The notes beneath the pieces were generated by a model. It was not told the DNA's origin. It worked only from the letters and a program-made list of their open reading frames with translations, and did not search any database. From IMG/VR virus record IMGVR_UViG_2778261414_000014: 15,714 nucleotides of DNA, one strand, 5' to 3'. Of this stretch, positions 15,042 to 15,714 are shown one piece after another (position 1 is the first letter of the stretch; each line of letters opens with the position of its first letter). This DNA is from a virus (taxonomy: Duplodnaviria > Heunggongvirae > Uroviricota > Caudoviricetes). The position numbers were made by a program, and so were the translations under genes.

Positions 15042-15308
15042 ATGGGATTGTTTACGACCCGCCAGTTACTCGGTTATACCGAACAAAAAGTGAAATTTCG
15101 TGCGCTGTTTCTGGAGCTGTTTTTCCGCCGTACGGTGAATTTCCATACCGAAGAGGTGATGCTGGACAAAATTACCGGAAAAACGCCGGTGGCGGCCTAT
15201 GTCTCCCCGGTTGTTGAAGGAAAAGTGCTGCGTCATCGCGGTGGTGAAACCCGCGTGTTACGTCCGGGCTACGTCAAGCCGAAACACGAATTCCCCTGGA
15301 GCCGGTAA
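15042..15308 (+). pseudogene. E: Major capsid protein E, truncated after ~85 codons by a deletion junction (88-aa ORF)
   Basis: ATG 15042 with SD AAGGA. The translation parallels the lambda gpE N-terminus up to ...PGYVKPKHE, then diverges (FPWSR) and stops at TAA 15306-15308. Lambda gpE is 341 aa. Confidence 0.7.
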
Positions 15309-15714
15309 AAGGAGCCGGTACCACCCTGTGGGTTTATAACGGTCAGGGTGACGCCTATGCAAACCCGTTGTCAGACGATGACTGGCAGCGACTGGCTAAG
15401 GTGAAGGATCTGACGCCGGGCGAGATGACGGCAGAATCCTACGATGATAACTACCTGGATGATGAAGACGCGGACTGGACCGCGACCGGGCAGGGGCAGA
15501 AATCTGCAGGTGATACCAGTTTTACGCTGGCCTGGAAACCGGGAGAGGAAGGCCAGAAAGGGCTTATAGGCTGGTTTGAAAGCGGCGATGTCCGGGCCTA
15601 TAAAATCCGTTTTCCGAATGGCACGGTGGATGTGTTTCGTGGCTGGGTCAGCAGTATCGGTAAGGCCGTGACGGCGAAAGAAGTGATCACCCGCACGGTG
15701 AAAGTCACTAACGT
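15299..15714 (+). CDS. V: Major tail protein V-like coding sequence, 5'-truncated with no in-frame start codon; continues past the window end
   Basis: Hand-translated frame 2 from ~15299: [140 protein letters not shown], almost identical to lambda gpV residues ~9-150 as I recall them. The frame is closed upstream by TGA 15245-15247 with no ATG or GTG before the homology begins. Confidence 0.7.

Follow-up and report, generated by a model that had tools for sequence, protein, structure and literature searches.

An E-to-V deletion junction shared by the defective Escherichia coli O157:H7 prophages Sp4 and Sp14

Structure of the E'-V junction

The window, by which is meant the whole stretch of 15,714 nucleotides analysed here (IMG/VR record IMGVR_UViG_2778261414_000014, a virus of the class Caudoviricetes), carries in its right-hand part the head genes of a phage 21/lambda-type module, all on the plus strand. 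Open reading frame lists, together with annotation carried over from 100% identical sequence, place Nu1 at 8916-9425, gene A (terminase large subunit, here frameshifted) at 9397-11326, W at 11310-11516, the portal gene B at 11513-13105 and the protease/scaffold gene C-Nu3 at 13095-14600, such that the head module upstream of D occupies positions 8916-14600. The head decoration gene D (14637-14984), placed on the same grounds, is intact and lies directly upstream of the locus under study. The reading frame of gene A is broken by a run of ten G residues (9657-9666); in the EDL933 copy of prophage Sp14 the run is nine G long and the gene is intact, and across genomes the annotated copies of Sp4 and Sp14 include both intact (642 aa) and broken versions of A. 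This run is either truly variable or prone to sequencing error.

Downstream of D lies a truncated major capsid gene, designated E' (15042-15308, plus strand), which appears in the open reading frame list as an 88-aa frame with an ATG start. It is made up of E codons 1-84, followed by Pro-Trp-Ser-Arg encoded by out-of-frame V sequence and a TAA stop codon at 15306-15308. In nucleotide comparison, E' is 97.5% identical to gene 7/E of phage 21, with the match ending at 15292. The E' product matches the Phage_cap_E profile (PF03864) with 54.2 bits (E = 1.5e-14, against a cut-off of 22.9), but is not full-length: only positions 1-80 of 329 are covered (ca. 342 aa would be expected), compared with 1-329 for the E protein of phage 21. 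RefSeq labels the product 'major capsid protein, incomplete, missing C-terminus'. An earlier note on this DNA had the E-like frame stopping soon after its lambda-type sequence, with which both the open reading frame list and the Pfam comparison agree.

The sequence that follows is that of the major tail tube gene V, picked up at codon 6 of a 250-aa protein, in frame -1 relative to E', and continuing past the end of the window (V', 15293-15714, plus strand). Lost from this gene are its first five codons (ATG GCA ACA CCA AAT) as well as the GAGGA found upstream of intact V. The remainder is 95-96% identical to V of CP-1639, of Stx phages and of the prophage at yodB in the O55:H7 strain DEC5B, and in the full copy, taken from identical sequence, the Phage_TTP_12 domain (PF16461) is complete (positions 1-135 of 135, 232 bits) and is accompanied by a Big_2 domain (PF02368, positions 2-79 of 79).

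The breakpoint was mapped by base-by-base alignment, with the intact E genes of phage 21 and DEC5B and the intact V genes of CP-1639 and DEC5B as references. The stretch that resembles phage 21 and its relatives at the nucleotide level ends at 15292, and that resembling V of CP-1639 and the Stx phages begins at 15283; within this overlap, position 15291 is the last E-specific base, the T at 15292 is common to both parents and 15293 is the first V-specific base. The crossover thus falls inside a single T, itself embedded in a patch (15283-15292) at which AACACGAATT of E and AACACCAAAT of V are identical at 8 of 10 positions. This is the outcome of the alignment for microhomology that the earlier note had proposed. 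Among ca. 2 million random endpoint pairs drawn from E and from the FI-to-V interval of an intact relative, a match of at least 8 in 10 was reached by 0.064%. A V allele starting ATGNCAACACGAATTCCCC, which would extend the match to at least 10 nt, was sought in IMG/VR with no hits. The imperfect match at the breakpoint fits a deletion guided by short homeology, and a short-homology mechanism is what these endpoints suggest.

Two further motifs lie in the immediate vicinity. The hexamer GAATTC (15288-15293) is composed of GAATT from E and C from V, where the parental bases are GAATTT in intact E and AAATCC in intact V; as neither parent has an EcoRI site at the breakpoint, the hexamer is a product of the junction rather than its cause. 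Just past the junction, at 15298-15320, a 10-nt direct repeat is observed, GGAGCCGGTA AAA GGAGCCGGTA, which is native V coding sequence (Glu-Pro-Val-Lys-Gly-Ala-Gly-Thr), is nearly present in intact alleles and is thus unconnected with the deletion.

The segment missing from the window is 2554 bp long in phage 21 and 2522 bp long in the DEC5B prophage of O55:H7, in agreement with the loss of 2.5-3 kb estimated previously. In both relatives it spans the remainder of E, the complete FI, FII, Z and U genes, and V's ribosome binding site with the initial 15 nt of its coding sequence. The comparison with intact relatives, which the earlier note had called for, therefore shows that phage 21 and DEC5B carry between the two breakpoints exactly the genes removed here. 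The description of the locus as an E-to-V junction with loss of the body of E and of FI-FII-Z-U stands, while the codons then given for its endpoints (about 85 in E and about 9 in V) are corrected to 84 and 6; residue 9 had been chosen because identity to lambda's own V begins there.

Translation of the V remnant

The V frame is closed upstream by a TGA at 15245-15247, and a codon scan finds no ATG, GTG or TTG in that frame between this stop and the TTG at 15368, which is the first canonical in-frame start of V' and has no Shine-Dalgarno (SD) sequence. The absence of an in-frame start, as the earlier note had it, is borne out. RefSeq/PGAP nevertheless takes an ATT (15290-15292, plus strand) as the start of a 246-aa coding sequence, WP_029208397.1 'phage tail protein', annotated at positions 20691-21431 of the locus sequence L001 (Sp4 of TR01) and 20151-20891 of L005 (Sp14 of EDL933) with no pseudogene flag. 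No SD-like motif is found in the 20 nt before this ATT or before the CTG at 15296, and the ATT was probably chosen for convenience of annotation rather than marking where translation truly starts. The apparently 'intact' 246-aa protein is better regarded as a start-less remnant.

An SD-like AAGGAG (15308-15313, plus strand) sits on the E' stop codon, and it, the GAATTC hexamer and the -1 offset between the two frames are all found at the positions previously reported. It coincides with V codons Lys11-Gly12-Ala13 (AAA GGA GCC), and the sole in-frame codon within reach downstream of it is a CTG at 15326, at a spacing of 11 nt. The possibility that the motif is a post-deletion adaptation was considered and rejected: a first search pattern found it in no intact V, and a looser pattern found one case, as AAAGGAGCC is also present in the intact lambda-type V of the IMG/VR contig L021. 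The motif is thus not specific to the deletion.

With regard to frameshifting, a CCCC run (15293-15296, plus strand) is the only place in the E'/V overlap at which -1 re-pairing of the P-site tRNA could occur. No slippery heptamer of the form X XXY YYZ is present in the zero frame between 15246 and 15305, where only the tetramer C_CCC is found, and no stimulatory RNA fold is evident at 15297-15380 (z = -0.75, with 45 of 200 shuffled sequences folding as well). Neither is there an SD-like element at a suitable distance upstream of the slip site, the AAGGAG being located downstream of the CCCC run. An AAGGAG in that position is not known to be stimulatory (compare dnaX and prfB). No canonical V-frame start lies at or near the TAA at 15306, where the only candidates are the ATT at 15290 and the CTG codons at 15296 and 15326.

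Among the rival explanations, the one that fares best holds that V is still made at this locus, either by a -1 slip on C_CCC (15293-15296), giving an E'(1-84)-V fusion, or by reinitiation after the TAA at 15306, using ATT 15290, CTG 15296 or CTG 15326, so that the module would still contribute tail tube protein to the pool of O157 prophages. The frames are indeed offset by -1, the CCCC run permits perfect P-site re-pairing, the body of V is intact with full Pfam domains in hundreds of genomes, RefSeq treats V' as a coding sequence from the ATT, and the lambda G-T pair, located just downstream, uses a -1 frameshift (annotated for phage 21, with the j2 coding sequence). Set against this, there is no heptamer and the downstream fold is no better than that of shuffled sequences, the AAGGAG consists of ordinary synonymous Lys-Gly-Ala codons that also occur in an intact V, ATT 15290 and CTG 15296 are without an SD sequence and CTG 15326 stands 11 nt from the AAGGAG, and other prophages of the same genomes supply intact V genes (complete U-V). 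The event is recent enough to account for the integrity of V', given that the copies show zero mismatches over 7.7 kb, with no selection needed, and without U, Z and FII, V by itself would not suffice to restore the tail of the module. In the absence of a canonical start, heptamer or structure, the coupled or frameshifted expression of V that was offered earlier as a speculation is unsupported; we regard this rival as very unlikely, and meaningful V expression from the junction locus would come as a considerable surprise. As judged from the sequence, V protein is presumably absent.

Distribution and the two prophage loci

The distribution of the junction was determined using a 306-nt probe against 5,426 complete E. 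coli genomes with an E-value limit of 1e-120. All 302 records returned match at 99% identity or more over at least 80% of the probe length, corresponding to 300 of the 5,426 genomes, in which the junction is 100% identical, and all carriers with a serotype name are O157:H7, including EDL933, EC4115, Xuzhou21 and SS52. The junction is found at 593 places in total, with a median of two per genome; two of the 593 places are on records labelled as plasmids, which may be mis-assigned contigs or phage-plasmid-like records. The junction is also present in ten IMG/VR contigs, and a large public collection of assemblies has 9,344 indexed blocks containing exactly the 88-aa E' product. Of 50,697 phage records, in contrast, none spans the junction (0 of 89 matching records). 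The junction is thus not how an intact, functional phage family is arranged, a case that had been named as one that would overturn the deletion reading.

The two copies typically found in a genome belong to two different prophages. The first lies between serT and hya and contains a frameshifted tccP2, sodC and an ISEc8 element in nu1, which identifies it as Sp4/CP-933M; the second adjoins yodB, contains tccP and espJ and is Sp14/CP-933U. These features match published assignments of tccP2 to Sp4 and of tccP to Sp14 (PMC2884950) and, in a further paper, of ISEc8 to nu1 of Sp4 (PMC2669165). Both junction loci are present in single genomes. The lysis genes of Sp4 (holin, lysozyme, Rz, PerC) form a cassette whose orientation is opposite to that in Sp14 and to that of the late operon (L001 5379-11048, Sp4 of TR01, versus L005 8621-13240, Sp14 of EDL933). 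This cassette is located between two copies of IS1203/IS629 in the same orientation, in addition to the ISEc8 in nu1. A simple inversion between the two IS copies would have left them inverted, so that the history of the Sp4 cassette is more complex.

When Sp4 of strain TR01 is compared with Sp14 of EDL933, zero mismatches are seen out to 5,634 nt on the left of the junction and 2,061 nt on its right. The yodB prophage of O55:H7 DEC5B, in comparison with Sp14, is 97.6% identical to the left and 94.9% identical to the right of the junction, whereas identity at the tccP-espJ end is 99.8%. O55:H7 CB9615 has an empty serT site; no literature treating CB9615 together with Sp4 and Sp14 was found. 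Identical flanks in Sp4 and Sp14, alongside a diverged DEC5B, fit one deletion that was later copied between prophages, and a single origin followed by copying is the simplest reading of these comparisons, which involve one O55:H7 genome per site. On the same basis of one O55:H7 genome per site, the direction of copying was likely from Sp4 to Sp14. A deletion that arose twice independently, in Sp4 and in Sp14, at a recombination hot spot is exceedingly unlikely: the unusually good short match at the breakpoint could favour repeated events, but the identity extends through 5,634 and 2,061 nt of flanking sequence, in which the O55:H7 yodB prophage is 2-5% different, and such flank-wide identity points to replacement of a whole module rather than to a repeated point event.

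The window itself does not correspond to either prophage over its entire length. Positions 1-8429 are the early/lysis arm of an icd-site prophage of the Sp8 type (99.9% identical), with the gene order P-ren-emrE-ybcK-Q-lysis-bor-ybcV-ylcI, and in SS52 a complete head-tail module comes after this arm. The window is of the Sp4/Sp14 type from 8589 to its end, and the switch occurs within 8430-8588, a segment that is identical in both. An assignment of the whole window to Sp4 was rejected, as there is no match to TR01 upstream of 9171 and the left arm is of the Sp8 type. A probe across the hybrid joint (8100-9100) matches none of the 5,426 complete E. coli genomes, and an IMG/VR contig (L013) covers window positions 3876-15714 at 99.99%. 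The hybrid is either a rare inter-prophage recombinant or an assembly chimera formed through the shared stretch of ca. 160 bp, and its status has no bearing on the E'-V junction.

An origin of the junction itself in assembly collapse or in a cloning artefact such as EcoRI cutting and religation at GAATTC, to which the position of that hexamer exactly on the junction and the presence in the window of another join (at about 8430-8588) absent from every complete genome might lend colour, is almost certainly wrong, since GAATTC occurs in neither parental sequence at the breakpoint and the junction recurs, base for base, in 300 genomes that were finished independently, most of which have it at two loci, and in the ten IMG/VR contigs. 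This recurrence excludes the assembly collapse that the earlier note had named as grounds for abandoning its interpretation. The E'-V junction is a genuine deletion, and its endpoints, its distribution and the missing canonical start are direct observations.

Proposed history and comparison with known systems

The simplest history begins with one deletion, in which the late operon of a prophage module of the phage-21/lambda type lost ca. 2.5 kb, presumably by illegitimate recombination where E codons 81-84 match V codons 2-5 at 8 of 10 bases. The deletion took out the distal three quarters of E, the complete FI, FII, Z and U genes and the beginning of V (ribosome binding site, ATG and initial five codons), leaving an 88-aa capsid stub that can still be translated from E's own start and a tail-tube coding body that is complete but has no usable start. 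The resulting module would be unable to make a capsid shell, head-tail connector parts, a tail terminator or a useful amount of tail tube. The deleted module is fixed in E. coli O157:H7 and would have been copied between Sp4 (serT-hya) and Sp14 (yodB) by homologous recombination across near-identical flanks. We hold with high confidence to these elements taken together, i.e. that the junction is the scar of a ca. 2.5-kb deletion with no usable V start, fixed in O157:H7 and copied between Sp4 and Sp14.

A more far-reaching version, put forward tentatively and on the whole doubtful, is that homologous recombination is carrying the defective module through the prophages of O157:H7 and has let it overwrite the once-intact module of the older yodB prophage (Sp14). 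In the window the module is joined to an Sp8-type left arm, where it would replace the complete head-tail genes of that prophage. Were this reading correct, recombination between prophages would homogenise them towards a defective state. That V' has been kept because it is still translated, from a non-canonical start or by a -1 slip, is much less likely than such a spread of the module.

The functional consequence of the deletion is already on record. In the paper cited above for ISEc8, Asadulghani et al. (2009; PMC2669165) tabulate both Head and Major Tail as defective in Sp4 and Sp14, in keeping with the earlier note's expectation that neither a major capsid nor a major tail protein could be made. 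The same source reports that excision of Sp4 and Sp14 requires prior regional replication, for which neighbouring Stx prophages are the driver, that packaging of Sp4 DNA depends on complementation by other prophages, and that Sp14 DNA is not packaged (PMC2669165). The E-V breakpoint is not spelled out in the accessible portion of its text (PMC2669165). The present analysis thus describes ordinary prophage decay and no new mechanism, and its importance beyond bookkeeping is small. It does provide a base-level explanation of why Sp4 and Sp14 build no virions of their own and depend on other prophages, a dependence demonstrated experimentally by Asadulghani et al. (2009), and the same scar in two prophages, together with an undeleted counterpart in O55:H7, makes a clean, small case of the copying of a defect. 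The junction could also serve as a marker of the O157:H7 lineage.

Compared with its closest relatives, the window is 100% identical over 6,544 nt (9171-15714) to the TR01 copy of Sp4 and 99.89% identical over 7,328 nt (8387-15714) to the EDL933 copy of Sp14, both of which have the same E'-V junction; upstream of cos, the window lacks the regulatory/lysis region of these prophages, its positions 1-8429 being of the Sp8 type. The gene order is that of the phage 21/lambda module (Nu1-A-W-B-C/Nu3-D-E-FI-FII-Z-U-V-G-T-H), and nucleotide identity to phage 21 is 96% from A to E codon 84, after which the 2554 bp of phage 21 from E codon 85 to V codon 5 have no counterpart in the window. The V allele, a member of the lambda tail tube family, is nearer to those of Stx phages and CP-1639 (95%) than to that of phage 21 (82%). 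The yodB prophage of O55:H7 DEC5B, which represents Sp14 in the lineage ancestral to O157:H7, shares with Sp14 its site, its cargo (tccP, espJ) and its module order, and its head-tail region is 95-98% identical to the O157:H7 copy, but it keeps E, FI, FII, Z and U. This prophage is also defective, with other lesions: ISEc31 splits its V gene (L004 23102-24315) and there is an internal stop in J.

The lambda G-T pair likewise consists of two overlapping frames with a -1 offset in the tail gene cluster, and is served by a canonical slippery heptamer that is conserved in functional phages. The E'-V arrangement, unlike G-T, has neither heptamer nor structure, and the overlap of its two frames is an accident of the deletion.
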